The notes below the pieces were generated by a model. That model saw only the letters and a program-made list of their open reading frames with translations, searched no databases and was not told the origin of the DNA. From positions 91,002-155,001 of the forward strand of contig JAWACY010000002.1 of assembly GCA_038896535.1 (NCBI GenBank): a stretch of DNA of 64,000 nt, given 5' to 3'. The stretch comes from Candidatus Anstonellales archaeon (GTDB lineage: Archaea > Micrarchaeota > Micrarchaeia > Anstonellales > J096). A program made the position numbers and the translations under genes. Positions within the stretch are counted from its first letter, which is position 1, and the number at the start of each line of letters is the position of its first letter. Positions 15,312 to 63,322 of the stretch are shown here, piece after piece.

Positions 15312-17498
15312 ATGGTTGAGAAACTGCAAAGCCCTCCTCCAGCATATGAGGAAATAAATAAAAACACGAAGGATGAATCAAGAAAGCTGGCATTGGAAGC
15401 CCTTAACTCCCTCAGAAATAACCCCAAATTCAAACAAGAATGGTTAACAAAAGAATTAGGAGAAAAAATCTCATCAATAACAAAGAAAATAATAGAAAAC
15501 ACATCAGGAGAATCAAGAAAGTGGGCATTCGAAGCTCTTAACAACCTCCTACAAAACCCAAAATTCAACCCAGAATGGCTAAAACCAGAATTAGGAGGCA
15601 ATATATCATCAGTAGTTAATAAGATTATGAGAAACGATTCACTAAGTGAAGAGCAAAAAAGGGCCTCATTAAATAATTTAAATGGACTTCTTCAAAATGC
15701 AGAAAATCCCATACGGATATTGTCAGGACAAGGAGCCACACAACAAACACCAACAGTTAGAGGAGAAGTGGCAAGAAGAGCAAGGAGCCAGATGCAAAGT
15801 GAAAATTATTATAGAGGCATTTCTACTGCTCTGGCTTATTATTTAGTTGGTAAAACTAAATATGAATATTTAATAGCGGAGCAAAGGGATCAACTCCAAA
15901 AATATGGAGTTGATGAAAAAACATTTAATGCTTATATTAAATATTTTAGGGAAAAGGGGGTAAAAAGTAGCATTGTAGATAAAGACGCTTATATTAGGGG
16001 CGTGCCTTTAGAAGAAGCACTTTTTGTAATACTTGTAGTAACAGGGACTGGACCAGTTGGAATGGAGACAATAAGAGAGATAACTAAGAATTACAATGAA
16101 ACAAACAAAATGAAAGATATTAACGATTTATTTGGAGGGTCTTTGGCCCACTTAAGTCAACGAGGTGTAAGGGGAGCAAGTGGCTATAAACAGTATTTTG
16201 GTGGTGTGATTGATTATCTAACATGGGAAAGTCCTCAAACGCAAGCAGGACCTTTAGAAGCAATTGGAGATATATTAAGAATGGCTAATGATAACAGAAA
16301 GAATTGGGGAGAAAAAGCTGTAAAAGAAGCATTGGATAACATTAGGGGGCTACTGGCTCAACCAGCACCACCTAAAGTTGAAGAAGGAAAAGTTCCACCA
16401 GCAACAGAACCTATAATTGGAAGGCCAGGTGCTCCCCCTCATGCTGAACAACAACCTGCGCCTCCTATAGCAACACCAAAGCCCGCTGTCACCGCACAAC
16501 CACCAGAAAAAGTAGAATTATTATCGCAGGGAGATTTGCAGAAAATAGTTGATAAATTAAACCAAAATCAAAATAAACCGCCTTATACTAAGTATGGTGT
16601 AGATGAGAGTGAGAATAAAATTAATGTTGCTTATGAAGTGGTTAAAGTGTTGGGGCTTGGTGAAGGACTCACACAAGACATAGAAGAATCAAGAAGGCAA
16701 AGAGCAGCAGTTGATCATGCATATAAGATTATAACTAATTTATCACCAAATGTTGAGGAAAGGAGGCTTTATTTAAAGAATGTAAACCCAGCAGCATTTG
16801 AGGATTTGAGGAGAATATTAAGTGGAACATATGCTTCTAAACTTTTAGATGACATTATAGGTGATGAAGCTGGTAGAAAATATATAAACTTAAAAAACCT
16901 TGATGCATTATATACAACACTTACTAAAGATGGTAGACATGTGTTGATAAAAAGTTTATTGAACGCTGCTGGCGTTAATGAAAATGATTTCTTAGATTTT
17001 ATTAATTGGGATAAAGATAAAAAGGAAATTAAAAGTCTTAAAGACTTATGGGAAAGGCTTAGCGATGATGAAACAGGAGCAATGCTGGGAACTGCTGTGA
17101 TGTTTATTGCTGGGTATAAGGGTAATTATTTATACACATCTTATCGCAGCAGGGAGGGCGCAAAAACAGAAATAAGTTTTACTACAGAAGATGTTGAAAG
17201 CAAAATAGGCAAAGGTGGGGGAGTTGTATTAAGTATTAGGGCGCGCTATGGAAATGGACCAATAGAAACAATAACAGAAAAAGAAAAAGGAAAGGGGCCA
17301 ATAAGTGAAGAAGATAAGTCAGCACAACCAAGTCTAACGCCTGGCGGTGGAGGGGCTGAGACCCCCCCCACAGCGGAGGGAGGAGGAGAAGGAGAAAAAA
17401 GAGAAGGAACAGAAAGCCAACAACAAGAAAAAAAAGAAGAAAAACAAACAGAAACACCACAAGCACCAGAAGGACCAGGAGGACCAATAACACCATAA
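15312..17498 (+). CDS. hypothetical 728-aa protein with N-terminal 45-aa tandem repeats and Pro/Gly/Glu-rich C-terminus
   Basis: Two 135-bp tandem repeat units encode SRK(L/W)A(L/F)EALN(S/N)L..NPKF..EWL..ELG. A central APPxxP linker and a GGGGAETPPTAEGGGEGE tail follow. No signal peptide. Confidence 0.6.
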   Translation: MVEKLQSPPPAYEEINKNTKDESRKLALEALNSLRNNPKFKQEWLTKELGEKISSITKKIIENTSGESRKWAFEALNNLLQNPKFNPEWLKPELGGNISSVVNKIMRNDSLSEEQKRASLNNLNGLLQNAENPIRILSGQGATQQTPTVRGEVARRARSQMQSENYYRGISTALAYYLVGKTKYEYLIAEQRDQLQKYGVDEKTFNAYIKYFREKGVKSSIVDKDAYIRGVPLEEALFVILVVTGTGPVGMETIREITKNYNETNKMKDINDLFGGSLAHLSQRGVRGASGYKQYFGGVIDYLTWESPQTQAGPLEAIGDILRMANDNRKNWGEKAVKEALDNIRGLLAQPAPPKVEEGKVPPATEPIIGRPGAPPHAEQQPAPPIATPKPAVTAQPPEKVELLSQGDLQKIVDKLNQNQNKPPYTKYGVDESENKINVAYEVVKVLGLGEGLTQDIEESRRQRAAVDHAYKIITNLSPNVEERRLYLKNVNPAAFEDLRRILSGTYASKLLDDIIGDEAGRKYINLKNLDALYTTLTKDGRHVLIKSLLNAAGVNENDFLDFINWDKDKKEIKSLKDLWERLSDDETGAMLGTAVMFIAGYKGNYLYTSYRSREGAKTEISFTTEDVESKIGKGGGVVLSIRARYGNGPIETITEKEKGKGPISEEDKSAQPSLTPGGGGAETPPTAEGGGEGEKREGTESQQQEKKEEKQTETPQAPEGPGGPITP
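15375..15644 (+). repeat. 135-bp in-frame tandem repeat (2 copies) inside the 728-aa gene
   Basis: gaatcaagaaag... recurs at 15375 and 15510, with about 75 percent nucleotide identity by eye across the units. Confidence 0.7.
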
Positions 17499-17530
17499 AA
17501 TAATAAATACAGAACAGAGAACAGGACATT

Positions 17531-17615
17531 CGGGCAATGAGGGGGTTAGGTAGGATTGTTAGGTGGGGGCAGGGGGAGGTTGTTTTAGATGGGGTTATTT
17601 GGGCGGTTGGTTATT
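17531..17615 (+). other. G-run-rich tract in the convergent intergenic region
   Basis: GGGGG, GGUGGGGG, GGGGG, GGGG, GGG and other G runs within about 85 nt. Confidence 0.5.
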
Positions 17616-17880
17616 TATGAATACTGATGGAGAGATAGGATAAAAAGAATAAAAAGTTGAGCTTATTATATCACTTATCTTATGATATTATAGAGTAAAT
17701 AGATAAAGACAAATAAAATCAATGAGAGATGAAAAAAACACGATAACAGATTTGGGGAGAAGTGTTAAAAATAAGAGCGTGTGCTTTGTATATGGGCTGT
17801 TTTATCTCAAAAAATATCTCAAAAAAATCAACATGCGGAATTATATAGTATAAAAAGCAATAAAAACCAAATAAAATTCA

Positions 17881-20800
17881 TTATTTCTCTTCTTCAAGTT
17901 TTTTCTCTAATGCTTTCAAATCCTCAATGAGTTTATCAAATGTTTTTTGTTCGGATTGCTCTCGGAAAATACTAGGGGCACTAACCCTCAAAAAATTAAA
18001 GTACTCTTCATACCTGCCGCTGAAATCTCTAAAACACAGACCAGGCATATTATAAAGATCGTTTATATCATCCCTCATTTGGTTTTTGAATTCTTGTGAT
18101 GTTGTTTTTTTAGTGGCCATTTCTTGTGCTGTCTTTAGAAATTGCGCCTCATAACTATCTGGCACTAGTAAAAAATATGATTCAACACCATCTTGACCTA
18201 TTTTTCCTCCTACTGCTTTTATATAACCTAACGGATTATTTACGATAGATGTATAAAGATTTATTACCTTCTTGATTGAACTAAACTCCGTTTGTTCTTT
18301 TTCTGCTTCCTTTTGTTCTTGTGTTGGTTCTAGTTTTTTGTATAAATCGTTAAATAATCTTGTAATTTCCCCTTCGTTGCCAAGCAATTTTTTCAACGCT
18401 TCATATTCACTTTCTCCCAATATCTCTTTAGCGAGTTTTCCGTCTTCTACTTCTAGTAAAGGAGTATAATAATATATAATGGGCTCTAAATTCCTCAAAA
18501 CTGTTAAAACATCTTCAAAATAGCTTAAATAAGCATTTCTTATTTCACTCCTTATTTTAGATATTTCAAGCAACACATGATATTTAGCCCTTTCTGACAA
18601 ATTAAATTTTTTCAGCTTCTCAATTAGTCTTCTCTCTTCTTCCTTTAACTCATTTATTCTGTCTTTGGTTTTTTCCAATGCCTCGTTATTCAATTTTTCT
18701 AATTCATTTATGTAGTTATTTATTGTTCCGCTGTCATATTTTGATAAAAAATCATGTAATGAAACCTGCTCTCCGTTAAAATAAAACCTATAATGAAAAG
18801 GCGTAAATGGTTCTTTAATACCAAGCAAGCTTAAAAAAGGCGACAAAAGTGGCACTCTTGCTTTTTTCTCATCCTCATACTGTTGTTTTACTATTTCTCT
18901 AAATCTATTATCGATCTTACTAATCACATTGTCTTTATCTAAACCAAATTTCGTTGCAAATGACTCCGCAATTCCAGTCTTTATCTCCATAAATGGCGCT
19001 GCACTACCATAATTAACCTTAAAAAACATGAAATCTATTAAAGCTCTATAATCAAGCTTAATATAATCAGCGGCTTCCTCAATAGAAACACCGTATGTTT
19101 TTGCAAGCGCTAAAATCCTTCTTACGGAATAAGAAAGAGCACTTATTACATCCCCTGTATAATTCCATTTCCTTTCATATATAAGAGCCCCTACATCTTT
19201 CTTAAATTTTTCTATGTTGCTTATTCCACTCAATTTTTCTACTGCTTTAACCAATACCTCAACAACATCGCTTTCCTTCATATCGCCAGAAAGATAAAAA
19301 ACAGGTGAGCTGGGGTTTCGAATATCTATTTTTGTACTGAGATATGTTATTATTGCAGCCATTTCTCTTATTTGTTCCGGCTTTAGAGTATTCAGGTTAA
19401 CAAGTTTATTTAATCTTACGTATCTCTCCCTCATTTTTTCTGCTATTTTTTCTCTTAACGTTTTTCTTGCTTCGTCTCCATTATAAAAACTATAACTTAT
19501 CCATTGCTTCTTTTCCTCTTCCAACTCTTTTATCTCTTTTTCTCTTTGCCCCCTTATTATATCCCATGCTTTCTTGAATGCTTCCCCTCCTTGTTCAACA
19601 AGAGTAAATATAAATTTCGGTGGAAAGCCAAAAGTTGATATATCCTCCAATTTCGATATTGATGCAAATTGCAATGTTTCATAAAATGCTTCTAATGATG
19701 CATACACATAACTATTCTTGCCAAGAGGGTTTTTTCCATTTTCCAGTGCTTGCAGGATTCTTTCCATTAAACCCTTTGCTCTTATAATATCACCAAAAAT
19801 AAGAAGTTTATAAACAATTTCCATATGTTTTGACAGATCTTCTGTTTTTTCTATTTTTATCTCAGTCTTCAACAAATTATCTGCCAACACTGCAGTTCTC
19901 TTATAAAAATCAAAAGCCGAACTTAATACGTTCTTAGCTGCTTCCAATGGGGATATGCCAAGTTTTTTTATGTATTCTAATGCTGCTTCACCTGTATAAA
20001 CTATAATCTCTCCTGATTTGCCTGTTTCTACATAAATCATACCTCTTGCCCTTATATCTCTTTGATATTCACCACTAAATGCATTATTTACATACATAGC
20101 CAAAATATAAAATGCTGCCATTTGTGTATTTGTAAAAACAAATTTCCCAGATCTTATATTTAATGCGCCAGCCGGTGTTTCAAGGCTTAATTTACCGCCA
20201 GCCAGCCACCTAAAATCGAGTAAATCCGGGGCTAATGTAATGCCTGCATATGGCCCAAACTTATGAGACACTCCTGCTAAAAATTCTTCAACCTCGGCCT
20301 GAACATAAGGGTTCCATTGTGGCACTTCTGCCCCAATTGCAACGCCAGAACTAGAAGTTGGAACTTGCATTCTTCTGCCTTCAGGATGTGGTATTTCTTG
20401 TATTGTTCTTTCTTCTACCCTAACTCCAAATCCAGCTGTTGGTTGGAGCTTTTCTGTTGGGGTAATTATCACACCGAAACGAGGGCCTGCCTCTAACCTT
20501 TGTTCATAATAATTAGTTATTGCTGTTGTACCTCTGTTTATAAATACTTCCTCTAAAGCGTTTTTAATATCTTCCAAATTCGCATGTCTATTTTTTGAAC
20601 TCTTGTAAAGAGATTCAACTAGGCCCTCTAAATCTCCTTTTGTAAGATAAACAGTACCCCCCAACAGTTCTTTTATCTTCTGTAGTTCTCCTTCTGATAG
20701 TAAAATACCGCCAGACCCAGCCAAAGCTTGTGGGCCAGCTAATAAATCAATAGGTAGAACAAATACTCGACTCTCTTGATCATATATAACTACTTCCTTG

Positions 20801-20985
20801 CCATTATAGGTTATCTTACCATCCCTCCCTATTTTATAACCAGCATTTTTCATCTTATTTAAAAGCCAATCATAAACCTTTCTCCATGGTTCTCTCTTGT
20901 ATTCTTGCTTTTTTCTTTGCTCCTCTGCCTTCTCTGCTGTTTCCCTTGTTCGTTGTTCCAGTTTACTTCCTTTTTCTTGCCCCAA
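17881..20985 (-). CDS. giant hypothetical protein (1034 aa), fourth gene of the giant-protein operon
   Basis: Uninterrupted 3.1-kb ORF. N-terminal third is Gly-rich and beta-like (GPYAGITLAPDLLDFRWLAGGKLSLETPAGALNIRSGKF). The remainder is K/E-rich alpha-helical. No catalytic motif found. Confidence 0.7.
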   Translation of the reverse strand: MGQEKGSKLEQRTRETAEKAEEQRKKQEYKREPWRKVYDWLLNKMKNAGYKIGRDGKITYNGKEVVIYDQESRVFVLPIDLLAGPQALAGSGGILLSEGELQKIKELLGGTVYLTKGDLEGLVESLYKSSKNRHANLEDIKNALEEVFINRGTTAITNYYEQRLEAGPRFGVIITPTEKLQPTAGFGVRVEERTIQEIPHPEGRRMQVPTSSSGVAIGAEVPQWNPYVQAEVEEFLAGVSHKFGPYAGITLAPDLLDFRWLAGGKLSLETPAGALNIRSGKFVFTNTQMAAFYILAMYVNNAFSGEYQRDIRARGMIYVETGKSGEIIVYTGEAALEYIKKLGISPLEAAKNVLSSAFDFYKRTAVLADNLLKTEIKIEKTEDLSKHMEIVYKLLIFGDIIRAKGLMERILQALENGKNPLGKNSYVYASLEAFYETLQFASISKLEDISTFGFPPKFIFTLVEQGGEAFKKAWDIIRGQREKEIKELEEEKKQWISYSFYNGDEARKTLREKIAEKMRERYVRLNKLVNLNTLKPEQIREMAAIITYLSTKIDIRNPSSPVFYLSGDMKESDVVEVLVKAVEKLSGISNIEKFKKDVGALIYERKWNYTGDVISALSYSVRRILALAKTYGVSIEEAADYIKLDYRALIDFMFFKVNYGSAAPFMEIKTGIAESFATKFGLDKDNVISKIDNRFREIVKQQYEDEKKARVPLLSPFLSLLGIKEPFTPFHYRFYFNGEQVSLHDFLSKYDSGTINNYINELEKLNNEALEKTKDRINELKEEERRLIEKLKKFNLSERAKYHVLLEISKIRSEIRNAYLSYFEDVLTVLRNLEPIIYYYTPLLEVEDGKLAKEILGESEYEALKKLLGNEGEITRLFNDLYKKLEPTQEQKEAEKEQTEFSSIKKVINLYTSIVNNPLGYIKAVGGKIGQDGVESYFLLVPDSYEAQFLKTAQEMATKKTTSQEFKNQMRDDINDLYNMPGLCFRDFSGRYEEYFNFLRVSAPSIFREQSEQKTFDKLIEDLKALEKKLEEEK

Positions 20986-21038
20986 TATCCCACCATTTAT
21001 TTATTAAAATATTCATTTCCTCGGCATGTGCACAATCA

Positions 21039-24000
21039 TTACCTAGTAGCCTTCAGTTTTGAGATCCTAAAAATGGCATCAAAATATGCTTTCACTACCT
21101 CTCCTGTTCTTTGAATGTTCAGTGCTATGTCGCCCCCATATTGACTTATTTCTGCGGGCCATGTCTCTGATATTGCCATACTACCATACACAACAATTCC
21201 TTGGAGCAGTTCATTACTTAGATCTTTACCAATAACTGTGGCTCTATACACACCACTACCAAGACGCCATGTCTCATCACTTATATTATTAAAAACAATC
21301 TCACCATTCTTGATGCTATAATTTATCTCTCTTACTTCATTGTTGAAAGTAAAATCCCCCCTTACACCAGTGCCACCTGGAGTCATGCCTGGCCCACCTA
21401 TATCATGAGTATAAACACCAGTTGCAAGCCAACTTTTATATTTACTGATCTGCCCAATAATAATATCTTCCCTTTCTTTATTTTTTATCTTTACTCCCTC
21501 GCTCGTTTTAACTCTCTCGCCAAAAGCAAGTTGAACATTTGTAACTCTTCTAAGACCAGTTAGATATGTGTTAACTAAATTAAATGTGCCTGTCATTCTT
21601 CTGGCTATTAACTCATCTGCCTTTTCTCCTCCTGCTCCTACATATTGTGTCCCCCCTGTTCCGAAAAATAGCCACTTATTATCTTCTCCTGCAAGAAAGC
21701 CAAGCCACCCACTTGTAGCATCTTTTTGCCCCTTAGCTATATCTATATTTGTTCCTATTAATAACTTACCACTAACAAACTTCGCCTCTAATCTCCCCTC
21801 TAATGCTCCGCCTGTTATTGTTATCCTCTCCTTGCCATTAATTGTTTTGCCGTTTAAATTTTTTAAAACCGCTTCTCCTGTCTTTAAAGGCCCTAAATTT
21901 CTTGTCCACCCACCTAAAACAATAAGCCTCCCTTCTTGGTTTGGGGCAAGAGCAACAATTGCTGATATCTTATTCTTATCATCAAATTCAACATGCACAA
22001 AAGCATGCCTAACCTCCAAATCCTCTATTTTCTCTCTTCCAATACCAGCAATAGCATTAATGGTTTCTGTATCTAAACCTGCGTATGAAAGAAATTGCAA
22101 AACAGTCTTAGGATCTCCTTCTTTTTCTCCATTAACTATCAAAAGGTAATCCCTTAAAAAATACGTAAGAGCTGCTTGTAAACGCCTCCTCCCCTCATTA
22201 AAGTTGTTTATAATACCAAATTGAAAATCAGTACCAAAACTTTGAAGAGTTTCTATTTGTTTTTTTAATAGTGGATCACCTAGATCCTCATTTATTGTTC
22301 TCACAGAATACCCTAATGCTGCTAAAGCAATTGGTGCATTCCTGTATGGATTTGTATATTGAAATTGTGCTCCATATTCTAACTGTACTTTTTTAGGTGT
22401 CCAATGCTTAGTGACTTTATCAACAAAACCTTTTGCTTCCCAATTTGTTGTTCCTGGGGGCGCACTTATCCCACTAATATATACGCCCCGTCTTCCCATT
22501 ACGTCATAAATTTTACCTACGAAGATACTATAATTCCTTTGATCAAGATAGGATAAACCACCTAAGCCACCACCACCAATTGGTAAGTTCTGCCCAATTA
22601 AAAAACCGCCCCATTGATTAACCTGAAGTGCTGGGGCTGCTACAAAACCATCAATACTTGGTTTATTATGCAAGGCTATAACAAGACCATCTAGACTAGC
22701 CAGAGTTGTTCCCTTTGTTTCTCTTCCTCCTTGCACACCAGTTTCAATCACCAATCCCTGCGCCTTTGCCAAATTCCCCTCCTTTGCCTTTTCCCTTACC
22801 CCTAAGTTATTAAGATAATTTATATACTCCTTTGCTTGTTCTTGTGGTACATAAAAGTATCCTGCTTCTGCATAAGTTCCATTTGGTTGTCTATAAAAAA
22901 TTCTTGCTTTATACTCTCCTTTCTCTATTTCCCCTCCTTTTGTTTTTTCGAAAACAAGGCCAGTTTCAACACCAGTCGGTAATAATAAATTCAACTTGTC
23001 CAAAGTTGTTAATTCTTTTGGCCCTTTATAAGATGCGTTGGCTTCAACAGTCCACAAAGTATTCCCGTCGTTGAGATTCACTCTTTTAAATCTTCCCTCT
23101 GCTATTGTTACTGCCCCCGAATCACTTGAGCCCCCGCCACCACTCAACTCAGCTTCTGTTCTGGTTATGCCTGGAAAGGCCCGTTGAATGTAGCTAAGTC
23201 TTCCGCTGAAATATCTACTCCATTGTCCCTCGCCATTTCTTTCCGCTCTGTAAGTACCGCCAAACGTTCCTTCAATAACTTTAAATGTCAGAGGTCCTTC
23301 AATTGGCAAATACTTGCTCAATATCTTGTTTAATTTACTATAATCAAATGTAAAATAAGGCAAGATTAATTGCAATGCTGGTGTGGTTAAATTAAATTCC
23401 AACATTTCTCCGTTTTCTATTGTTTTTCTGAGTTCTTCAAATGTTTTTGGTAGTGCAGTTGGTATTTCGCCAGGAAGAAGATAACCATGAAGAGAATTAT
23501 ACACGGTTCTTGGAAGGTTGATATTGATCTTTAAATCTGGTATATTTACAGTAAAACCTTGTTGTTCTGTTTGTGTTATTTTTATTTTAAAAGTTTCTAA
23601 GCCAGTAGTCTGGTCTCTTTCAACTTTAAGATTTTCCATTTTTATATCTTGAATGGTTGGAAATATTTTATTTAATTCAGTTCCGACTTCACGCAGAAAA
23701 TTTATTGCGCCTGCTGTATAATTACTTTCATATAATGCCTGCGCACTACCTAAAATCAAAGACAACCCATGGCTAAGTATCTCAGTGTTGCCTTGTTTGC
23801 TTACAAAGGGCGTTAGATAAACTGCAGCAGCAAAATGCAGCTCAGGGCGTATCATAGAAAGATTCTCAATAAAAATCCTTAATTTTTCTCCTTCTACTGT
23901 CTTAAGAAATTCTCTAATTTTACTCATCGTTATACGTTCAGGGTCTCCGCCAAGCAAGGAAGCGGCATGCTTGGCTATATAAATTTGTGCGTAGTAATTA

Positions 24001-24833
24001 AGTAGCGCGAACTGTTTCTGTGTTGTCGTATTAGATCCTAAGGCCTCAAAGAATTTATTTCTAATTTCTAAATCTTTTGCCAAATTTTCATCACCATAGG
24101 GCAATATGAATTTTCTCAGTTCTGCCATTTGTTTCTCATTTTCAATTTCAATTTTGCCGTCATAATAAGCAAAAATGTCAGCTATAGCAGTTTGTCTTCT
24201 TCCATAAAATGTTGATAGAATTCTATGGAACAGCGTTCTTGTATCAAGATTGAGATTACTCAAAAGATCTTCGAAATCCTTGAGATCTCCATCTTTCCTT
24301 TTAATCTTTTCTTCTAGAACTTTCTCTAATTTTTCTCCTAATAGCCTTTTGTATTTAGTTTCAAGTTTTTTTAGGTTACCCCAAACTTCTTCTAATCTCT
24401 TTATAAAATCATCAATCTTTCCTCTTACAGTTTTTGCGTCTGCATCGGGGGGAATATTTAGAAAACAATCCGCATAAGCATCCTCTATTATTTTAGCCTG
24501 GGAGGTTAATTCATTTAATAATTTCTTATATTCTTGTATGAGCTCCCTTTCCTTCTCTGAAAAAAAGTCTAGATTAAGTTTACTTAAATATTGAACAAAC
24601 TCATTTAATGTTCTGTAGTTCAAGGCGTATTGGGTATATTTAGGCACTTCTTCCTCTATTTTCTGTGGAGCCTTCATATTAAATAGAAGCGTTAAACCCA
24701 TTACTACGCTCTCTCTTTGCTTCTGCGCCTCATTTGCTGTTTCTATTGCTCTTCTTTTTCCTTCTGTTAGTTCTTCTGTTAGTTGTGGTGTTTCTTTTTT
24801 TCCGACCGGACTTTTTTCTTGTGTGGCTGGCAT
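21039..24833 (-). CDS. giant hypothetical protein (1264 aa), third gene of the operon
   Basis: Uninterrupted 3.8-kb ORF. N-terminal 600 aa are helical and K/E-rich, C-terminal 650 aa are Gly-rich (GGGGLGG, GGPGMTPGGTGVRGDF). No Walker motif or protease motif seen. Confidence 0.7.
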   Translation of the reverse strand: MPATQEKSPVGKKETPQLTEELTEGKRRAIETANEAQKQRESVVMGLTLLFNMKAPQKIEEEVPKYTQYALNYRTLNEFVQYLSKLNLDFFSEKERELIQEYKKLLNELTSQAKIIEDAYADCFLNIPPDADAKTVRGKIDDFIKRLEEVWGNLKKLETKYKRLLGEKLEKVLEEKIKRKDGDLKDFEDLLSNLNLDTRTLFHRILSTFYGRRQTAIADIFAYYDGKIEIENEKQMAELRKFILPYGDENLAKDLEIRNKFFEALGSNTTTQKQFALLNYYAQIYIAKHAASLLGGDPERITMSKIREFLKTVEGEKLRIFIENLSMIRPELHFAAAVYLTPFVSKQGNTEILSHGLSLILGSAQALYESNYTAGAINFLREVGTELNKIFPTIQDIKMENLKVERDQTTGLETFKIKITQTEQQGFTVNIPDLKININLPRTVYNSLHGYLLPGEIPTALPKTFEELRKTIENGEMLEFNLTTPALQLILPYFTFDYSKLNKILSKYLPIEGPLTFKVIEGTFGGTYRAERNGEGQWSRYFSGRLSYIQRAFPGITRTEAELSGGGGSSDSGAVTIAEGRFKRVNLNDGNTLWTVEANASYKGPKELTTLDKLNLLLPTGVETGLVFEKTKGGEIEKGEYKARIFYRQPNGTYAEAGYFYVPQEQAKEYINYLNNLGVREKAKEGNLAKAQGLVIETGVQGGRETKGTTLASLDGLVIALHNKPSIDGFVAAPALQVNQWGGFLIGQNLPIGGGGLGGLSYLDQRNYSIFVGKIYDVMGRRGVYISGISAPPGTTNWEAKGFVDKVTKHWTPKKVQLEYGAQFQYTNPYRNAPIALAALGYSVRTINEDLGDPLLKKQIETLQSFGTDFQFGIINNFNEGRRRLQAALTYFLRDYLLIVNGEKEGDPKTVLQFLSYAGLDTETINAIAGIGREKIEDLEVRHAFVHVEFDDKNKISAIVALAPNQEGRLIVLGGWTRNLGPLKTGEAVLKNLNGKTINGKERITITGGALEGRLEAKFVSGKLLIGTNIDIAKGQKDATSGWLGFLAGEDNKWLFFGTGGTQYVGAGGEKADELIARRMTGTFNLVNTYLTGLRRVTNVQLAFGERVKTSEGVKIKNKEREDIIIGQISKYKSWLATGVYTHDIGGPGMTPGGTGVRGDFTFNNEVREINYSIKNGEIVFNNISDETWRLGSGVYRATVIGKDLSNELLQGIVVYGSMAISETWPAEISQYGGDIALNIQRTGEVVKAYFDAIFRISKLKATR

Positions 24834-24863
24834 AGAAAAATTTGAATAAATGAGTTTAAAAAT

Positions 24864-26711
24864 CTATATGAAATACTTGCAAGGAGAATTTAAAAGCGTT
24901 AGATTAATATCGCACTTATAGTCTAATTCTTTCGTTGCTCCGCCTATATTTCTTTGCACATTTTCTATTGTTAAATTAATTGTATAACTCTTTTTTTCGT
25001 CTTCACGCATATTATTAAAACCGTCCCTTGATGCTGTGGCATTAAATAGCATATAAGCTTGTTTTGGTTGAGATGTAGTCGTGTCGTTAACAATACTTAT
25101 TAATGCTGATAATTCAGCCAATAAATCACTGCCATCTTTAACCCCATACTTAGGAGCATTATCACAGCTCAAATATCTGTTTTGAGATATGTCAAAACCG
25201 CAAAATATATAACTGTATTTAAGAGTGCCGGGCAGCAATATAACTTTAACCGGCTGAGGAGAGCAAGCCAAAGATCCCATGCAATAAAACACCCTACTCT
25301 TATTGTTATCATCCTCATTGCTTTCAGCTATACTATTTTCAGGATCAGCACTCGTATTTACCTCTATTATTTTAAATTCATCTTCGCATATTAAATTGAA
25401 TTTTACTATATTATTATCTGGTGATAGCTCATATTTATCCTCTATTATTGTGCTTTGTGTTTGTGTTGTTTCTTTAATTTTCAATGATAAATTTGCTTTT
25501 CCTTGTGGCGGGAAATTTTCAAAAATAATCGATGCATTACACTCATAACTTCTGCCTTGGCCTATTTCATTGCCATTAAATGGGCATGATATGTCTGATT
25601 TTAAGTTTGGTGTCAATATATTTACTGTTATTTGTGTAGTTATTGTATAACCACTACACCCAGATTCTAATGATTGAATTGTAACATTAAATGTCAGGCT
25701 TGCTGGCATTGGTTGATTGCCATTATAATTTAAATCCCCTGTTACATCAGCACTACTGCCACTAGCTATTTCCACCTGATTATCAAGAGAAAAAGCGAAA
25801 TTATTATCATTAGGCACTACAGATATAACTTTTATCTTCTCTTCTCCATTATTTGTGACTTTTATTGTAACTTTTGTAGGGTTTCCAGTATATACAATTC
25901 CATTACTTGATAACTGAACATTTATTAATTTACAATATGGCACATTAACCGGCAAGCTTATTGAGTAAGCATCTGTAGGTTGCCTGAAATATCTTATTCC
26001 TTCCCTAAAAGAAAAATAAGTATCATTCATATCAACAAGTAAGACACAAAAATAATTGGCATTTGCATTTATTGAATTTGGATTATTACTTATTGTGAAA
26101 GTTTTGGCAAAACTATTGCCTGATTCGCCACTTATAGATTGATAATAATTGTTAACAGATATATCCCCATGACAATACATTACTGCTGAACCATTTGAGA
26201 CTTTCCAGTTATTATCATTATTATAATATTTAACATTTACTTGCCTCCCGTTTGAAATTGAGAAAGCACATGAACCAGTTTTATTAAAATAATAATAACC
26301 AACGCCATTACCAAAATCTGTTTTACAATTGTTTGATGCGTCGAATGGAAGCGAGCCTTGTTGGATAAAATTTACTGTTAAATTTTGCAATCCGGGCCCA
26401 GTTCCGCCAGTCGAGCCAAATGAAGAGCTTGTTGATGATATTACATCACCAGTAGGCCAAAACTTTAAAGTTAGGTTTGCTAAAACGTTAAATGGTTTAT
26501 TTGGTATTACTTTTTGAACTCTTACACCATTTTGATAAAAATCAACTGAAAAGTTAAATAACCATGAAATTGGAGCAATTAAATCAAAATTAGTTTGTTG
26601 CCCTGAACGAGGAGCATTTCCTGCCTTATATAAGTCACTTCCAGATTGTGATGTTTGTGCACTAAAAACAATTGTTAAAATTAAAAATAAAAAAAATATT
26701 TTTTTTATCAT
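24864..26711 (-). CDS. secreted Cys-rich, N-glycosylation-sequon-rich protein (615 aa) with signal peptide, second gene of the operon
   Basis: MIKKIFFLFLILTIVFSAQTSQ is a typical signal peptide. More than 25 N-x-S/T sequons and about 20 Cys. KVTIKVTNNGEEKIKVISVVPNDNNFAFSL resembles CARDB-like beta-sandwich adhesion domains. Confidence 0.7.
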   Translation of the reverse strand: MIKKIFFLFLILTIVFSAQTSQSGSDLYKAGNAPRSGQQTNFDLIAPISWLFNFSVDFYQNGVRVQKVIPNKPFNVLANLTLKFWPTGDVISSTSSSFGSTGGTGPGLQNLTVNFIQQGSLPFDASNNCKTDFGNGVGYYYFNKTGSCAFSISNGRQVNVKYYNNDNNWKVSNGSAVMYCHGDISVNNYYQSISGESGNSFAKTFTISNNPNSINANANYFCVLLVDMNDTYFSFREGIRYFRQPTDAYSISLPVNVPYCKLINVQLSSNGIVYTGNPTKVTIKVTNNGEEKIKVISVVPNDNNFAFSLDNQVEIASGSSADVTGDLNYNGNQPMPASLTFNVTIQSLESGCSGYTITTQITVNILTPNLKSDISCPFNGNEIGQGRSYECNASIIFENFPPQGKANLSLKIKETTQTQSTIIEDKYELSPDNNIVKFNLICEDEFKIIEVNTSADPENSIAESNEDDNNKSRVFYCMGSLACSPQPVKVILLPGTLKYSYIFCGFDISQNRYLSCDNAPKYGVKDGSDLLAELSALISIVNDTTTSQPKQAYMLFNATASRDGFNNMREDEKKSYTINLTIENVQRNIGGATKELDYKCDINLTLLNSPCKYFI

Positions 26712-26723
26712 TTTTTCACTTTA

Positions 26724-29700
26724 TTATGTAGATTCAGCATTCTTAAATAATTCTTCTGCCATTTCTTCTGGATCTCTTGTTATTGTTCTCCCCCATGCAT
26801 CTACATCTTCTGTTCTTAAACCTATCTGTTCTAAAAGCCAATTAACTGCCCTCTCTGCTCCAGACACAATAACTGTAAGTATTGGGACAAAGTAAGGGCC
26901 TACTTGAATAACAGAAATGCTAGGGTTAACAGACCAGTTCTCTCGCTCATAACTAACTGTATAAGTATTTATTAATCCCACTGATGGAATTGGGCTCCTT
27001 GCCCAAGATAAACCAAATTTTCCACCGCCAATTGCATAACTAGCTCCTGCTCCCCACATTAAACCGGCGCTGCTAAAACCAACAAATGGAGAAACAGTTA
27101 AATCTCCTAATCTAACATATGGGGACAGAGCAGCCATTCCATAAATAGCGAGGGCATTAGTTGCACTAGCACTAAGAAGCCAGGCAAGTCCAACATTCTC
27201 ATTCCCAAATATTGGGAATGCAGTACTTATTCCAACTCCGGGATTTACAAATTTTCCATTAACAAACATAATTTGTGGCTGAATAGTAAATGGCCCCTCA
27301 CGAAACTCTAAGCCAACAATTGCTGTCCTTCTCAATCTATCAGCAAATAATTTTTGCTTTTCTTTTAATGTTAATTCTCTTGGCCTCTGCTCTCTTACCT
27401 CTTTTATTATTGGTTTAATCTTCTCTTGGTCTTTTTTATCAAATTCAAGCCCGCCTAATTTCTGGCCATTACTGTCTTTTACTTCAATAAATATTTTATC
27501 ATTTGTTTCTGTTACTGTATAATTATAATTCCTAAGATTGTGAGCCACATTTTTAAGTCCTTCTTTTGTATTTTCTCCTATATTAGGTATCTGATCGATC
27601 TGATCATCGGTTGGCACATTAACGACCCAATTACCATTTTGCTTCGTGAGAGTTAAATTTTGCTGTAATTTCTTTATTGCTTCTTCAGCAAGGTTGCCGC
27701 CTACATCAGAAGGTAATATTGAACGAAATTCCGTCAAAGATATTTCATAACCAACAACTTCTGTTCTTATTATTGATTCCGTTGCTGTTGTTGGTAGGCT
27801 AACTACTGGCACAACTGGAAGGAGTGTTAAGTCTGGCTTTCTTGGCTGAATAAAAATTGGTGTTCCTACATTATCTATCATACCATAAAATTCTACTTTT
27901 GGCAGTTGCGGAGCTCTACTAACACTTTCTGAAGGAACAGGCATAGTTATAGAAAATTCTCCTCCCCACCTTGAAACGCTGCCATAACCAAGCTCAACAT
28001 CGCCATTCAATACAAAATAGTTGCGCCATATAAGTGCATCTTTTTTGTTATCCTCTTCTTTTTCATTCTTTTGTGATAGCATTAAAATTGCCATACTGGC
28101 ACTTGATGCCATTATTATATTTTCTCTATCATTTTCTGGTGTCAGGACAAGCCTATCATTTTTCGTTACTAATATATCATCTTTTGCGGCTGCGTTAACT
28201 GTTACATTCCCTCTATTATCAACATTAACTCTATAAACTGTTATTCTTTCACCATTTGGCTTTAAGATATCTATGTTATAAGTTCCGGGCTTTAAATTTT
28301 TTGCTTTAATTGTCTCTTGAATATTTTCAATCTTTTGTTGACTGCCAAACACATTTCTGTTTATATTGATGCCTTCTGTTGCTTTTTGCCATCCAGCTAT
28401 CCAATTTTGAGCATTAAATGCATTTCCAACCAGATCTTCAAATGGATATTCAACTGCCTGTATTGCAAACAAAACTGCTGCAGCATCTTCAACCGATATT
28501 TTATTACTAAGGCCAAGTTCTTGTATCAATTTTCTTGCACTATCTCTTAAGTTATTCTTTTCTGTATCAGACATGGAATCAAAAATCCTTTGTGTATTAT
28601 TCAGAAAGTAATCAAAAACCGCGTTATATCTCCTCCTATATACTTCATTAGCTTCTTCGCTTACATAACCAAAATACCTTCTTATAACAAATTCTTTTAG
28701 GCCATTCAAATCATTTACTCTGCTGCCTTTAGCATATTTAACAATCCAAGCAACAGATGGATAATAGCCAAGAAATTCTTGGCTGTATTCATAACTTGCT
28801 GTTATACTATAACCTTTACCTTTCTTCTTTTCTCCTGCTGGTTTATAATATACTCTTGTCTCTGTTGCCCCTTGTGGTGGTTGTGGCTGCAGTGGTGATT
28901 CAGGTGGTTTTTGTTCAACTTCAACATACTTAACCGGTAGCTTTGGTTGTATGCTTTCTACAAGTTTTAGAATACGCAAACCCTGCTTTTGCTCTTCTGA
29001 TCCTTTAGCAAAATATTCGTTTTTATTAAGCTCTTCATTAAAAGCAGAAATCTCATTATCGGTTTTTAAATGCTCCTTTATAATATTAAGCACATCGACC
29101 TTTTCATTATCAGGCAACTGCTTATTCATAATTTGTATTAATGCTATTCTCCTGATTAAAGGCTCTAAAAACAAGGGCATAAAATCTTCTTCTATCCCTA
29201 CTCTTTTTGCCAGTGAAACAAGCTCACTCCTTATATCATTATCCTCTTTCTTTAACTGTTCTATCTGTGCAATAACATCTTTTAGATTAACATTATTCTT
29301 CAACATAAATACAACATCATTTATATCATAACCATAATCCCATAATAAACTTTTTACATCTTCCTCATTATTTTCATTGATAGTAATATTTTTTTGTTTT
29401 AATTTTTCTTTTATTTGCTGCCACACAACATCTGACCATTTTTCTTTTATTTTGTCTTCCAGATATTCGTTAAAATCTCTATACTTCATGCTTCTTAAGT
29501 TAATACTTTTTTCATACCAGTCTTCATCCAAAAGTTCAGCAACAAATGATAAATATTCATCCGCTGTCATTGAATTCATTATTTGAGTCAAAAAATTTTG
29601 CCTTCTCATAGAAACAATTGAAAATGCTTCTCTATCCCCTGCACTTCTATATGATAATCTTTCTTGAATAAGAATTAAAGCAAATTGGTTTGCAACTGTC

Positions 29701-30680
29701 ATTGTAGAAGCTTTTGCATTCATATCAGCAAATGTTTTTGCCAGCTTTCTGTATTGCTTTTCAAACTCTTCTTTTTCTTGATCTCCTGAATTTTTACTTA
29801 TACTGTCTTTATAGAATTTTTGTAGTTTATCATAAAATTCTGAGACAATAAGATAAATAGATGCCAGCTTTCCTGCTTCTGCATCAAAAAGATGAAGATA
29901 CTTACTTGGCAATTTTCCTCCTTCTACCAATCTTTCTACTACTCCCCTTAAGTCATTCATGCCTTTACTCAACTCATCGTAAAAATCATTCATCGATTTT
30001 GTTAGGTCTACTTTTTGTTCTCTTTCTCCTATTTGTTCATTAGAAATTAAAATGGAATAACCCTTAGCTAGAGTCAAATTCAAATATGCAACAGAATCAT
30101 AAAGCTCTTTGCCGGTTTTGAGCTTTTTTTCATCAAATAATGCTTTCATAATAAGTCCTATTGTTGCTTCCATATATACATTTTTTTCTTTTGCTGGCAA
30201 TTCTAAACTTTGGCCAATTGAATCAAAACCATCATAAGCAATGCCAATAACTTGCAATAGACTAAGCCTTATTCTTCCAGCTTCTGTTCCAACATCTTTT
30301 AACTCTGCAAGAGATTTTATCACATCTGCAATCTCTTCATCCCCTAATCCTTTCCTTTTTGCAGCTAATTCAACAAGCATTGCTGCTTCTATTGTTGACG
30401 CATATCTTGCCTTTTCTTTAGGGTCTTTTTCATTCAATATACTCTCTATAAGTCCCCTATCAGTCCTTACAAGATAGGCAATTCTACCAAAAAAAGTTCT
30501 AGGCCATATTTTTGCATAACCTTGCTTTACTAATCTATCTATTAACTCACCTTCATTTTTTATTTGAAATTTGTTTACATATGCACTTAATACTTCTTCG
30601 CTTACCCCATATTTTTGTGCTAATTGCTTAACATCAATTTGTTTTTCAGTTGCTGTTTGATCAGGCATTTTTACACCCAT
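26724..30680 (-). CDS. giant hypothetical protein (1318 aa) with C-terminal Gly-zipper-like hydrophobic membrane region, first gene of the operon
   Basis: Uninterrupted 3.96-kb ORF. First 900 aa are K/E-rich and helical. Last 200 aa contain hydrophobic Gly/Ala/Ser-rich stretches (VGLAWLLSASATNALAIYGMAALSPYV, VSPFVGFSSAGLMWGAGASYAIGGG, VGPYFVPILTVIVSGA). Confidence 0.7.
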   Translation of the reverse strand: MGVKMPDQTATEKQIDVKQLAQKYGVSEEVLSAYVNKFQIKNEGELIDRLVKQGYAKIWPRTFFGRIAYLVRTDRGLIESILNEKDPKEKARYASTIEAAMLVELAAKRKGLGDEEIADVIKSLAELKDVGTEAGRIRLSLLQVIGIAYDGFDSIGQSLELPAKEKNVYMEATIGLIMKALFDEKKLKTGKELYDSVAYLNLTLAKGYSILISNEQIGEREQKVDLTKSMNDFYDELSKGMNDLRGVVERLVEGGKLPSKYLHLFDAEAGKLASIYLIVSEFYDKLQKFYKDSISKNSGDQEKEEFEKQYRKLAKTFADMNAKASTMTVANQFALILIQERLSYRSAGDREAFSIVSMRRQNFLTQIMNSMTADEYLSFVAELLDEDWYEKSINLRSMKYRDFNEYLEDKIKEKWSDVVWQQIKEKLKQKNITINENNEEDVKSLLWDYGYDINDVVFMLKNNVNLKDVIAQIEQLKKEDNDIRSELVSLAKRVGIEEDFMPLFLEPLIRRIALIQIMNKQLPDNEKVDVLNIIKEHLKTDNEISAFNEELNKNEYFAKGSEEQKQGLRILKLVESIQPKLPVKYVEVEQKPPESPLQPQPPQGATETRVYYKPAGEKKKGKGYSITASYEYSQEFLGYYPSVAWIVKYAKGSRVNDLNGLKEFVIRRYFGYVSEEANEVYRRRYNAVFDYFLNNTQRIFDSMSDTEKNNLRDSARKLIQELGLSNKISVEDAAAVLFAIQAVEYPFEDLVGNAFNAQNWIAGWQKATEGININRNVFGSQQKIENIQETIKAKNLKPGTYNIDILKPNGERITVYRVNVDNRGNVTVNAAAKDDILVTKNDRLVLTPENDRENIIMASSASMAILMLSQKNEKEEDNKKDALIWRNYFVLNGDVELGYGSVSRWGGEFSITMPVPSESVSRAPQLPKVEFYGMIDNVGTPIFIQPRKPDLTLLPVVPVVSLPTTATESIIRTEVVGYEISLTEFRSILPSDVGGNLAEEAIKKLQQNLTLTKQNGNWVVNVPTDDQIDQIPNIGENTKEGLKNVAHNLRNYNYTVTETNDKIFIEVKDSNGQKLGGLEFDKKDQEKIKPIIKEVREQRPRELTLKEKQKLFADRLRRTAIVGLEFREGPFTIQPQIMFVNGKFVNPGVGISTAFPIFGNENVGLAWLLSASATNALAIYGMAALSPYVRLGDLTVSPFVGFSSAGLMWGAGASYAIGGGKFGLSWARSPIPSVGLINTYTVSYERENWSVNPSISVIQVGPYFVPILTVIVSGAERAVNWLLEQIGLRTEDVDAWGRTITRDPEEMAEELFKNAEST

Positions 30681-30730
30681 TAAATTTTTATTTAGTTATA
30701 TTTAAAAATGTTGCTAAAATAAAAAAAGGT

Positions 30731-31799: not shown

Positions 31800-32210
31800 A
31801 TGTTCTCAAAAAAATTTCTCTATACATTGGATGCAGATGAAGTTATTGATATAACACATGATATAAAAAATGCTGTTGAAGAAAGCAAGATAAAGAATGG
31901 CATATGCAATGTTTTTGCTAAAGGTTCTACTGCCGCATTAATATTGAGTGAGTATGAGCATGGCCATATAAAAGATTTATTTAATGCAATGGAAATAATA
32001 GCGCCATCAAAAAATTATTATGAGCATGACAAAGCATGGCATGATGGCAATGGAAAAAGCCACATAAGAGCAGCATTTTTACAGCAACATTTGACAATGC
32101 CATTAATAAACAAAAGGCTTGAAATAGGCCAATGGCAAAACATTCTATTGATAAATCTTGATACAAGAAAAAGAGAAAGGGAAGTATTGCTTTCTATATT
32201 GGAGGGCTAA
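31800..32210 (+). CDS. YjbQ/UPF0047-family protein (secondary thiamine-phosphate synthase-like)
   Basis: GICNVFAKGSTAALILSEYEHGHIKDL and HIRAAFLQQHLTMPLINKRLEIGQWQNILLINLD match the YjbQ family. Confidence 0.8.
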   Translation: MFSKKFLYTLDADEVIDITHDIKNAVEESKIKNGICNVFAKGSTAALILSEYEHGHIKDLFNAMEIIAPSKNYYEHDKAWHDGNGKSHIRAAFLQQHLTMPLINKRLEIGQWQNILLINLDTRKREREVLLSILEG

Positions 32211-41777: not shown

Positions 41778-42884
41778 ATGATTGAATTAAAAGAACTGCC
41801 ATTGGTAAAAGCAGATGAGCCATTATCTAAAGGCATTGCACTTTTATTAAAACCATCTCCGATTGTTGGTGTTTTAGAAGGCAATAACTTAATTGGGGTA
41901 TTAGATGACAGACATTTGAGCATAAGGGCAAAAGATGCTTCGCAGATAAAATGTTCCAGTGTTTCCATAAAGTGCCATAAAATAAAGAAAATCGGCAGCA
42001 TAGAGCATTTAATAAAAATTTTTGCTAACGAGCATTTCAAAGCACTTCCTGTTGTTGGAAAAGATAACAGGCCAGTTGGTTATTATTCAAGGAGCGAGAT
42101 ATTAAAGGCAATTGTTGATAAAGGCCTTTTGCCAGATGTTAGCATAACAGATATTATGTCTGCTCCTATTTATACAATAGATTCAAATGCAACATTAGGA
42201 GAAGCAAAAGCAAGAATGAAAGAGCTGGGCGTAAAAAGATTGACAGTATTGGAGAATGGCAGATTAATTGGTGTCATATCAAGCTTTGATCTTATAGCAT
42301 TGAAAATAAAACCAAAACAAAGACAAAGCATGCAACTTGTAAAAGAAGTGAAAAATATTGAAAATACAAAAGTAAAAGAGCTTTTAAGAGAGCCATTGCT
42401 TATAGTAGCAAAAACAGATAGGCTTTATGATGTTGTAACAAAAATGTATGAAAAAAATGTTTCTTATGCATTAGTAGTTGAAAGCTTGGAAAAAAGAAAG
42501 CCAATTGGCATATTAACAGCAAGGGCGATATTCAAAAAAGTTTTAGAGAACATAGAAAAGCCAAAAACAAAAATAGAGATATCTGGATTAAAAGATAAAA
42601 ATATGTGGGCCTTTGATGAGATAAAAGATGCATTTATGAAGTTGGCAGAAAAAATAAATAAAATAAAAAGCCTTGATAAAATATCAATAACAATCAAAGA
42701 AGGAAAAAGCACTTATCGTTATAATGTAGGGGTTTATTCAGAAGGCAAAATAGAGCATTTCCATTCAGAAGATGAAGAGCTTTTAATGGCTGCTTATAAA
42801 GTCATTGACATAATAAAAGCGCGGGCGTTAAAAGAAAAGGGAAGAAAACACTTAAGAAAACCGGCTGAAGAGGAATTTGAATGA
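41778..42884 (+). CDS. CBS-domain protein (two CBS pairs)
   Basis: Repeated CBS-like units (e.g. DIMSAPIYTIDSNATLGEAKARMKELGVKRLTVLENGRLIGVISSFDL). Confidence 0.7.
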   Translation: MIELKELPLVKADEPLSKGIALLLKPSPIVGVLEGNNLIGVLDDRHLSIRAKDASQIKCSSVSIKCHKIKKIGSIEHLIKIFANEHFKALPVVGKDNRPVGYYSRSEILKAIVDKGLLPDVSITDIMSAPIYTIDSNATLGEAKARMKELGVKRLTVLENGRLIGVISSFDLIALKIKPKQRQSMQLVKEVKNIENTKVKELLREPLLIVAKTDRLYDVVTKMYEKNVSYALVVESLEKRKPIGILTARAIFKKVLENIEKPKTKIEISGLKDKNMWAFDEIKDAFMKLAEKINKIKSLDKISITIKEGKSTYRYNVGVYSEGKIEHFHSEDEELLMAAYKVIDIIKARALKEKGRKHLRKPAEEEFE

Positions 42885-43306
42885 AAAAACATAGGGCACA
42901 AGTTTCATTTGAATTGCTTGCTATTATCTTCTTTATTTTTGCATTATTTATCCCTATATTATATTTTTTTTACATAAGGTCTTCAGATATAACAAGGCAG
43001 GCATCAAATGATTATGCAAGTGCTTATTTAGATGCAATTTATTCAAATGCTTTATCTGTCTATCATGCTGGTAATGGCAGTTATGTCATAGCAGTCATAA
43101 ATGTCCCGAATGGAATAAAGAATATTGCTATAAAAAATATAAACAGCATGCCAATATTACTTGTAATTGAAACTGAAGGCAGTAATATGACAAAGATCAT
43201 GCCAGCAAATACAACTATAGATGGAAAAGATAGATTGATATTGCCAGGAATAAGAGAGATAAACATAAGTTATGACGGAAATGCTATATTAATAAAGCCA
43301 AAATAA
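42881..43306 (+). CDS. archaeal type IV pilin-like protein with class III signal peptide
   Basis: MKKHRA|QVSFELLAIIFFIF has Q at +1 and E at +5 after a basic leader, the prepilin-peptidase recognition pattern, followed by a hydrophobic helix. ATGA overlap with the CBS gene. Confidence 0.6.
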   Translation: MKKHRAQVSFELLAIIFFIFALFIPILYFFYIRSSDITRQASNDYASAYLDAIYSNALSVYHAGNGSYVIAVINVPNGIKNIAIKNINSMPILLVIETEGSNMTKIMPANTTIDGKDRLILPGIREINISYDGNAILIKPK

Positions 43307-63170: not shown

Positions 63171-63322
63171 TGCCGCGGGTGGGATTCGAACCCACGACCT
63201 CCAGATAGCCCAAAGCCAAATTATAAATTTATAAATTAAATTCAAACATCATTGCATAAGCTCAGCACTCATAGATATATGCTTCCATGAGTCTGGCGTT
63301 CTACCAACTAAACTACCGCGGC
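63171..63322 (-). tRNA. tRNA-Met (anticodon CAU) with 79-nt intron at the canonical 37/38 position
   Basis: Exons give acceptor GCCGCGG/CCGCGGC, D arm GUUU-AGUUGGUA-GAAC, anticodon stem CCAGA/UCUGG with loop CUCAUG|A, variable arm AGGUC, T arm GUGGG-UUCGAAU-CCCAC, discriminator A. Intron begins GAAGCAUAUAUCUAUGAGUGCUGAG and contains CUAUGAG, which can pair with the anticodon-loop CUCAUGG for a bulge-helix-bulge. G1:C72 suggests an elongator or Ile2-type tRNA rather than initiator. Confidence 0.8.

Follow-up and report, generated by a model that had tools for sequence, protein, structure and literature searches.

Archaeal cell-surface proteins with CARDB domains (PF07705), represented by the structures 3IDU from Pyrococcus furiosus, 2L0D and 2KL6, are among the closest described counterparts of a protein encoded in a 64,000-nucleotide stretch from the metagenome-assembled genome of a Candidatus Anstonellales archaeon (assembly GCA_038896535.1, contig JAWACY010000002.1, positions 91,002 to 155,001), referred to below as the window. 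Anstonellales is an order in the Micrarchaeia, which belong to the DPANN archaea. The protein is the product of gene C, an intact open reading frame (ORF) of 615 amino acids (aa), and corresponds with 100% identity to the NCBI entry hypothetical protein QXP22_03000 of Candidatus Anstonellales archaeon. C shares with the CARDB cell-surface proteins one domain matching the CARDB profile, the DPxNxIxExNExNN motif, an N-terminal signal peptide, and an architecture of all-β modules. In contrast to them, it contains only a single CARDB copy, which by itself stays below the Pfam gathering threshold, and it adds a family-specific N-terminal region as well as a Cys-rich C-terminal domain without database match. 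PKD, β-propeller, and YVTN modules are absent, as is a C-terminal anchor. The reading favored here, with moderate confidence, is that C is a structural component of the cell envelope exported by the Sec route, a secreted surface subunit or adhesin-like subunit kept in place by the product of the giant gene directly upstream, gene D. What is new is an uncharacterized protein family that has a C-terminal domain of its own and is paired obligatorily with another gene.

Two described envelope proteins of the same phylum allow a closer comparison. The micrarchaeon Mia14 encodes strain-specific secreted surface proteins in which PKD or β-propeller domains are fused to CARDB-like adhesion modules (PMC5498576). 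C resembles them, by description, in phylum, secretion, the CARDB-like module, and a proposed role in contact between cells or with a host. The Mia14 proteins are very large multidomain fusions, whereas C is a Cys-rich protein of 615 aa paired with a separate giant ORF. By analogy, C is best read as the same broad kind of protein as these CARDB-bearing secreted surface proteins. The second protein, SLP_Mh (Micr_00292), contains S-layer domains of family PF05123 and nearly no Cys or Met (bioRxiv 10.1101/2021.04.28.441871). SLP_Mh and C are alike as exported, putatively N-glycosylated envelope proteins, but both the PF05123 domains and the near absence of sulfur-containing residues are missing in C. 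A role of C as the S-layer protein proper of its organism would agree with its secretion, its richness in Asn, Ser, and Thr, and its sequons, yet it is very improbable, as none of 9 family members shows an S-layer Pfam match, Cys accounts for 2.4% of C, and the family is rare (9 relatives in 1.8 billion representatives) while homologues of SLP occur widely in the phylum.

The C family was delimited by an exhaustive phmmer search of 1.84 billion representative sequences, which returns nine relatives with E values of 1e-21 to 1e-12 and one spurious repeat protein. A cluster look-up leads to P0011, a full-length orthologue with 33% identity to C, and a genome scan with alignment A5 reveals one new locus, L011; alignment A4 finds no relative in genome contigs. 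Word-indexed protein searches with C, the C family profile, and the D family profile return the query alone; in searches of this type, candidate lists appear to be filled up by sequences of low complexity. A set of 37 metagenome loci obtained with the degenerate motif Y-x-C...C-x-Y-[YF]-I-stop turned out to be chance matches by tblastn and was discarded. The taxon-labeled relatives are all Micrarchaeota except for one metagenome-assembled genome labeled Methanobacteriota, and judging from these sequences the family currently appears specific to Micrarchaeota. Its members share a VxNxG strand motif with the invariant residue N287 (alignment A6) and an ADPxNxIxESxExNN motif. Identity of C to the relatives P0003 to P0007 reaches 26 to 34% in the C-terminal half, compared to 14 to 22% in the N-terminal region.

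The leader of C shows the tripartite organization of a class I (Sec) signal peptide, as judged by inspection: the basic n-region MIKK is followed by the 12-residue h-region IFFLFLILTIVF and the small polar c-region SAQTSQSG. Cleavage is a candidate after S17, A18, or S23, with V15/S17 and S21/S23 as possible −3/−1 pairs, and the AlphaFold2 (AF2) model places a helix over residues 2 to 14. Signal-peptide-like leaders are found in all full-length relatives, with equivalent n-h-c leaders in P0004 to P0009 and P0011. In the block of genes D, C, B, and A, C is the sole protein with such an N terminus, in agreement with the initial annotation of the locus. Inspection of the leader reveals no twin-Arg motif. 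A lipobox is likewise not found in C, whose first Cys is residue 129. No class III (pilin) site is present, with MIKK followed directly by IFFLF without a G/A cleavage residue, and no archaeosortase/PGF-CTERM signal, the end ...LLNSPCKYFI lacking a hydrophobic segment. By these sequence criteria, C was discarded as a lipoprotein, a pilin-like protein, or an archaeosortase substrate. No C-terminal transmembrane segment or other membrane anchor of C was found, and an ending of this type without a hydrophobic anchor is common across the family. Retention of C at the envelope would therefore depend on protein-protein contact.

The predicted fold of C consists of four consecutive regions (Table 1). 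AF2 with C as a single sequence gives an unusable model with a predicted local distance difference test (pLDDT) score of 35; an alignment of 9 sequences was used instead and yields an all-β model with a mean pLDDT of 66.5. Values of 80 to 94 are reached at residues ∼250 to 480, which form two sandwiches, and parts of the N-terminal region are modeled with moderate scores. These confident immunoglobulin (Ig)-like and CARDB domains are β-sandwiches of the kind that the initial annotation had suggested looking for. The variable N-terminal region holds five lineage-specific Cys residues and is interrupted by a Ser/Gly/Thr-rich low-confidence insert at residues 93 to 150. The Ig-like domain shows a weak, subthreshold Pfam match to Ig_VWA7 at residues 265 to 351. 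Across the family, this domain is matched by DUF1573 in three of nine members and by HYDIN/VesB-like Ig families in another count of 3/9, and in the PDB the family profile finds 8q30, a DUF4352 structure, and 8fk7, a flagellin outer domain.

The adjacent domain is connected to bona fide CARDB at the profile level. Pfam CARDB matches residues 405 to 472 of C with 19.0 bits (E = 0.0017; profile positions 37 to 100 of 101), compared to a gathering threshold of 22.7 bits, and it is matched by 6/9 family members with a best E value of 5.6e-56. Family profile A7 detects the CARDB structures 3idu_A (3.9e-5), 2l0d_A (8e-5; "cell surface protein"), and 2kl6_A (2e-4), which are the solved structures detectably related to C. 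The domain closes with the terminal motif D-P-x-N-x-[IV]-x-E-x-N-E-x-N-N, and this hallmark reads ADPENSIAESNEDDNN at residues 455 to 470 (window positions 25302 to 25349). The stretch originally described as CARDB-like, KVTIKVTNNGEEKIKVISVVPND, does exist, at residues 280 to 302 (window positions 25806 to 25874), but it belongs to the Ig-like domain, and the CARDB match is in the next domain.

The C-terminal domain, residues 478 to 615, has no match in Pfam or the PDB. It contains the conserved residues C483, C504, C516, C600, and C611, and it ends in CKYFI-COOH (24867 to 24881), matching the family motif C-x-Y-[YF]-I, which forms the extreme C terminus in 7 of the 10 family members. No catalytic domain is detectable in C. 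Foldseek searches of the PDB and BFVD with the AF2 model return only serial Ig ectodomain arrays, namely, the integrin alpha thigh and calf domains, complement MG domains, the ASH/Ig domains of HYDIN, and phage tail or baseplate Ig domains. These proteins show serial β-sandwiches, as does C, with template modeling (TM) scores of ≤0.27 against the PDB and ≤0.34 against BFVD and with 7 to 13% sequence identity. Due to these low scores, the matches represent a generic resemblance of fold class only and imply no homology.

Cysteines set C apart from its surroundings. C contains 15 of them, or 2.44% of its residues, compared to a window mean of 0.74% (3.3-fold), while D has none and B and A have one each. 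All 15 are aligned in the orthologue P0011. Eight are conserved family-wide, with C352, C600, and C611 present in nine of nine members, C442 and C477 in eight, C483 and C504 in seven, and C516 in six; the remaining seven are lineage specific. From this conservation in an exported protein, C is probably braced by disulfides. The sequon N-x-S/T occurs 15 times, and the residues N392, N407, and N603 recur as sequons in most family members of the alignments. Asn makes up 11.4% of C, compared to a window mean of 6.3%, and Ser and Thr are abundant as well. This composition accounts for the sequon load: shuffling of the mature sequence gives an expectation of 11.2 ± 2.9 sequons, with a P value of 0.12 for 15 or more. 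The initial annotation had counted more than 25 sequons and about 20 Cys residues. Neither number holds, and the sequons show no significant excess, but the Cys richness is real, and the same description is correct about the ORF, its signal peptide, a fold of the CARDB type, and the giant neighboring genes. Micrarchaeota are reported to have an S-layer and to express genes for N-glycosylation (bioRxiv 10.1101/2021.04.28.441871). An AglB gene was not found among the scanned ORFs of the window. C is probably N-glycosylated at some of the 15 sites.

The most informative evidence concerns the gene upstream of C. At each of the eight loci with upstream DNA (the window, L002, L003, L004, L005, L006, L007, and L011), the C gene directly follows a large orphan ORF that has the same direction. 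These ORFs encode 620 to 1,734 aa where complete and are spaced from a 4-nucleotide (nt) overlap to a 37-nt gap (Table 1), while the other neighbors vary between the loci. In the window, C is indeed embedded between two giants, D (1,318 aa) and B (1,264 aa). Genes B and A have no counterpart beside any C homologue, and a large upstream ORF is always present; the conserved unit is therefore a large orphan together with C and not C between giants. The earlier proposal that C partners the giant proteins thus stands for the upstream giant only, with the extracellular β-sandwich nature of C itself well supported. Because of the strict and tight linkage, the upstream gene product, in the window D, is the prime candidate for the partner of C. 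The near absence of intergenic space between the two genes suggests cotranscription and possibly translational coupling.

The upstream ORFs of L005 (34% identity) and L006 are full-length homologues of gene D. The remaining upstream ORFs show no homology to D or to one another in phmmer, hmmsearch, and hhalign comparisons, except for the pair from L003 and L011. With at least five dissimilar groups of upstream partners, the conserved pair is positional and not demonstrably orthologous. Pfam, NCBIfam, PHROG, and PDB searches give no match for the ORFs that precede C at the other loci. All of them share the lack of a signal peptide, a high charge, and a Gly/aromatic-rich C-terminal stretch of ∼250 aa. 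D itself contains 27% charged residues, and its last ∼200 aa are Gly/aromatic rich with strand-like repeats and one hydrophobic segment at residues 1253 to 1275. Judged from the sequence, these last ∼200 residues are the only candidates for contact of D with the envelope.

Several side observations concern these upstream proteins and the surroundings of the pair. The N terminus of D (residues 11 to 46; window positions 30540 to 30650, minus strand), which includes QLAQKYGVSEEVLSAYVNKF, is conserved in L005 and L006 and matches HTH_Tnp_1 at a nonsignificant E value of 0.048, so that a helix-turn-helix-like motif is possible. Gly/aromatic-rich, strand-like C-terminal stretches of ∼200 to 250 aa are located at window positions 26724 to 27400, L002:600-1269, L004:2160-3062, and L007:4260-4861. 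In three unrelated-looking partners, alternating hydrophobic strands lead up to a terminal Phe (KFSLGF, HFTSNVF, and VGVRFAF), and these ends resemble the bacterial outer-membrane β-signal without a significant family match. A Pfam match of partner C termini to Autotransporter (E = 0.077) was discarded as evidence. A YjbQ/UPF0047 gene lies divergently 5′ of the D-C pair in the window (31800 to 32210, plus strand) and in L005 (5327-5740), the sole shared flanking synteny. Just 3′ of the C homologue, three loci contain a gene for a small hydrophobic protein of 131 to 153 aa with 37 to 39% identity (L003:12228-12689, L004:5052-5447, and L011:12042-12503). This gene is absent from the window, where gene B holds the position.

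The following mechanism is proposed for C. After removal of the signal peptide, the mature protein of ∼595 aa would fold outside the membrane as a row of β-sandwiches made up of the variable N-terminal β region, the Ig-like domain, the CARDB domain, and the family-specific Cys-rich C-terminal domain. Docking would be the task of the better-conserved C-terminal half, that is, CARDB plus the C-terminal domain with its C-x-Y-[YF]-I end. The N-terminal half, which evolves fast, would face a ligand or a host as the exposed, adhesin-like part. The sequence analysis shows the ORF, its leader, the folds of the domains, the conservation of Cys, the distribution of the family, and the synteny of the gene pair; export, disulfides, glycosylation, docking to D, and adhesion are inferred. 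What points to an adhesin function is the Ig-like and CARDB content and the fast evolution of the N-terminal half. Attachment to a host is the way of life of DPANN archaea, and to our knowledge hardly any of the proteins that build this contact have been described.

A number of points weigh against C being an envelope subunit held by D. All leader calls on C and its relatives were made by sequence inspection. The sequon density does not exceed the expectation from composition. The odd number of Cys residues leaves at least one of them unpaired. The C-terminal domain, which would carry the docking end, is modeled weakly at a pLDDT of 40 to 65, as is the insert at residues 93 to 150. The upstream partners fall into groups without detectable mutual similarity, and D, having no export signal, looks mostly cytoplasmic, which makes contact with an extracellular C hard to explain unless the last ∼200 aa of D are embedded in the membrane or exposed. 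The last two points also speak for C as a stand-alone secreted or S-layer-associated glycoprotein, with the adjacency to the giant reflecting shared transcription and no physical partnership, as does the frequency of CARDB and Ig modules in many unrelated archaeal surface proteins. This explanation is unlikely, since co-directional adjacency is kept at 8/8 loci despite identities of 20 to 33% while other neighbors change, and since C itself lacks an anchor.

The β-rich ends of the upstream partners bear on a different role, in which C would be no adhesin but would act outside the cell on the upstream giant, assisting its assembly or export or capping it, and the C-terminal ∼200 to 250 aa of the giant would enter or cross the envelope. 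Such a factor would have functional counterparts in the accessory subunits that bacteria use for surface display and would fit the tight coupling to the upstream gene, the Gly/aromatic-rich strands with β-signal-like Phe ends in three partners (KFSLGF, HFTSNVF, and VRFAF), and the free C-x-Y-[YF]-I end of C, which could serve strand augmentation. It is nevertheless quite unlikely: the partner C termini show no significant match to a barrel family, with Autotransporter at its nonsignificant E value as the best, and Foldseek reveals no similarity of C to POTRA, usher, or chaperone folds. Moreover, we know of no established membrane β-barrels in archaea.

In a more far-reaching and rather improbable reading, C and the upstream giant form a two-component trans-envelope complex of Micrarchaeota that has not been described before, the partner possibly having an archaeal β-barrel-like anchor. 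The giant would then consist of a charged body facing the cytoplasm and a C-terminal β-rich, possibly barrel-like, Phe-terminated spanning domain. On the outside, the disulfide-braced C would use its C-x-Y-[YF]-I end to cap it or dock onto it, and the pair could be part of an apparatus for contact between symbiont and host. If true, membrane β-barrels in the partner C termini would be the first for archaea. Micrarchaeota genomes typically encode giant hypothetical proteins, and some of these would gain a function if the pair spans the envelope. If there is no such pair, C would be another lineage-specific surface decoration. In either case, C and D represent a concrete, testable pair for cultivated Micrarchaeota.

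Four ORFs share one direction on the minus strand in the order D-C-B-A, with gene C in second place. The gap between D and C leaves no space for a promoter, and TATA-like boxes lie 5′ of D (Table 1) and, as TTTTTAAA, ∼25 nt 5′ of the start of gene B; this promoter reading is one of inspection only in a genome of 31% GC content. T-runs are found 3′ of the stop of gene A. A scan for bacterial sigma-70 promoters and terminators stays at the background level and is irrelevant to an archaeon. The genes around the block are ordinary ones, which encode a ferric-reductase-like protein, a cupredoxin, YjbQ, ArgRS, GlmS, and Hsp20.

Table 1. Features of the D-C-B-A block, regions of the C protein, and ORFs immediately upstream of C genes
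Feature	Position	Strand	Description
Gene D	26724-30680	-	1,318-aa orphan; stop 12 nt before gene C start
Gene C	24864-26711	-	615-aa secreted Cys-rich β-sandwich protein; ORF and translation
Gene B	21039-24833	-	1,264-aa orphan; 30 nt downstream of gene C
Gene A	17881-20985	-	1,034-aa orphan; 53 nt downstream of gene B; closes the same-strand block
Putative archaeal promoter of the D-C(-B-A) unit	30681..30730	-	TTTAAATATA, ∼25-35 nt 5′ of D start; inspection
Sec-type signal peptide of C	26655..26711	-	∼residues 1-19, MIKK-IFFLFLILTIVF-SAQ; sequence inspection
Variable N-terminal β-rich region of C	25944..26654	-	Residues 20-256; AF2 strands with pLDDT 55-88 outside the insert
Ig-like β-sandwich of C	25614..25943	-	Residues 257-366; pLDDT 85-94; invariant N287 and C352
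CARDB domain of C	25281..25613	-	Residues 367-477; Pfam, family profile, pLDDT 80-91
Family-specific Cys-rich C-terminal domain of C	24867..25280	-	Residues 478-615; alignments A1, A2, and A7
Upstream ORF, window (D)			1,318 aa; 12-nt gap
Upstream ORF, L002			More than 422 aa, ORF cut by contig end; 4-nt overlap
Upstream ORF, L003			1,715 aa; 14-nt gap
Upstream ORF, L004			620 aa; 15-nt gap
Upstream ORF, L005			1,393 aa; 17-nt gap
Upstream ORF, L006			1,389 aa; 4-nt gap
Upstream ORF, L007/L008			1,241 aa; 37-nt gap
Upstream ORF, L011			1,734 aa; 2-nt gap

Genes D, B, and A, as well as a 728-aa neighbor, show nothing significant in PDB, Pfam, NCBIfam, and PHROG searches. The orphan status of all four block genes could point to a mobile element or provirus, with C as a receptor-binding or tail-like protein. 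This origin would also fit the GC content of the block (0.33 to 0.39, with flanks at ∼0.30) and the tail and baseplate Ig arrays returned from the viral Foldseek library. It is hardly probable, as there is no significant PHROG match, no integrase, capsid, terminase, or flanking repeats are seen, the viral fold matches are generic Ig arrays at TM scores of ≤0.34, and the order YjbQ-D-C is common to the window and L005 amid housekeeping genes. The raised GC content extends over positions 16000 to 30000, together with a strongly negative GC skew, in a window of ∼31% GC, and it may be an effect of amino acid composition and not of foreign origin.

The 728-aa orphan (15312 to 17498, plus strand) runs convergently toward the end of the block; its tails are of low complexity and rich in Pro, Gly, and Glu, and it matches no library entry. 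Two further ORFs of the window resemble class III (pilin-like) or membrane-anchored exported proteins, both without a Pfam match. One of them, of 322 aa (45773 to 46741, plus strand), has the leader MDAKKALAIFIALILLGEAL and the highest sequon density in the window, with 14 sites or 43 per 1,000 aa; the other, of 141 aa (42881 to 43306, plus strand), has the N terminus MKKHRAQVSFELLAIIFFIF. A tRNA gene with a long intron (63171 to 63322, minus strand; 152 nt in total) is missed by ARAGORN and detected by Rfam, in keeping with archaeal DNA. A protein of 460 aa encoded at 48948 to 50330 (minus strand) contains ankyrin repeats (Ank_2, E = 4e-80), which is unusual for archaea, and a second Ank protein is encoded near the gene C homologue in L009 (6479-7159).

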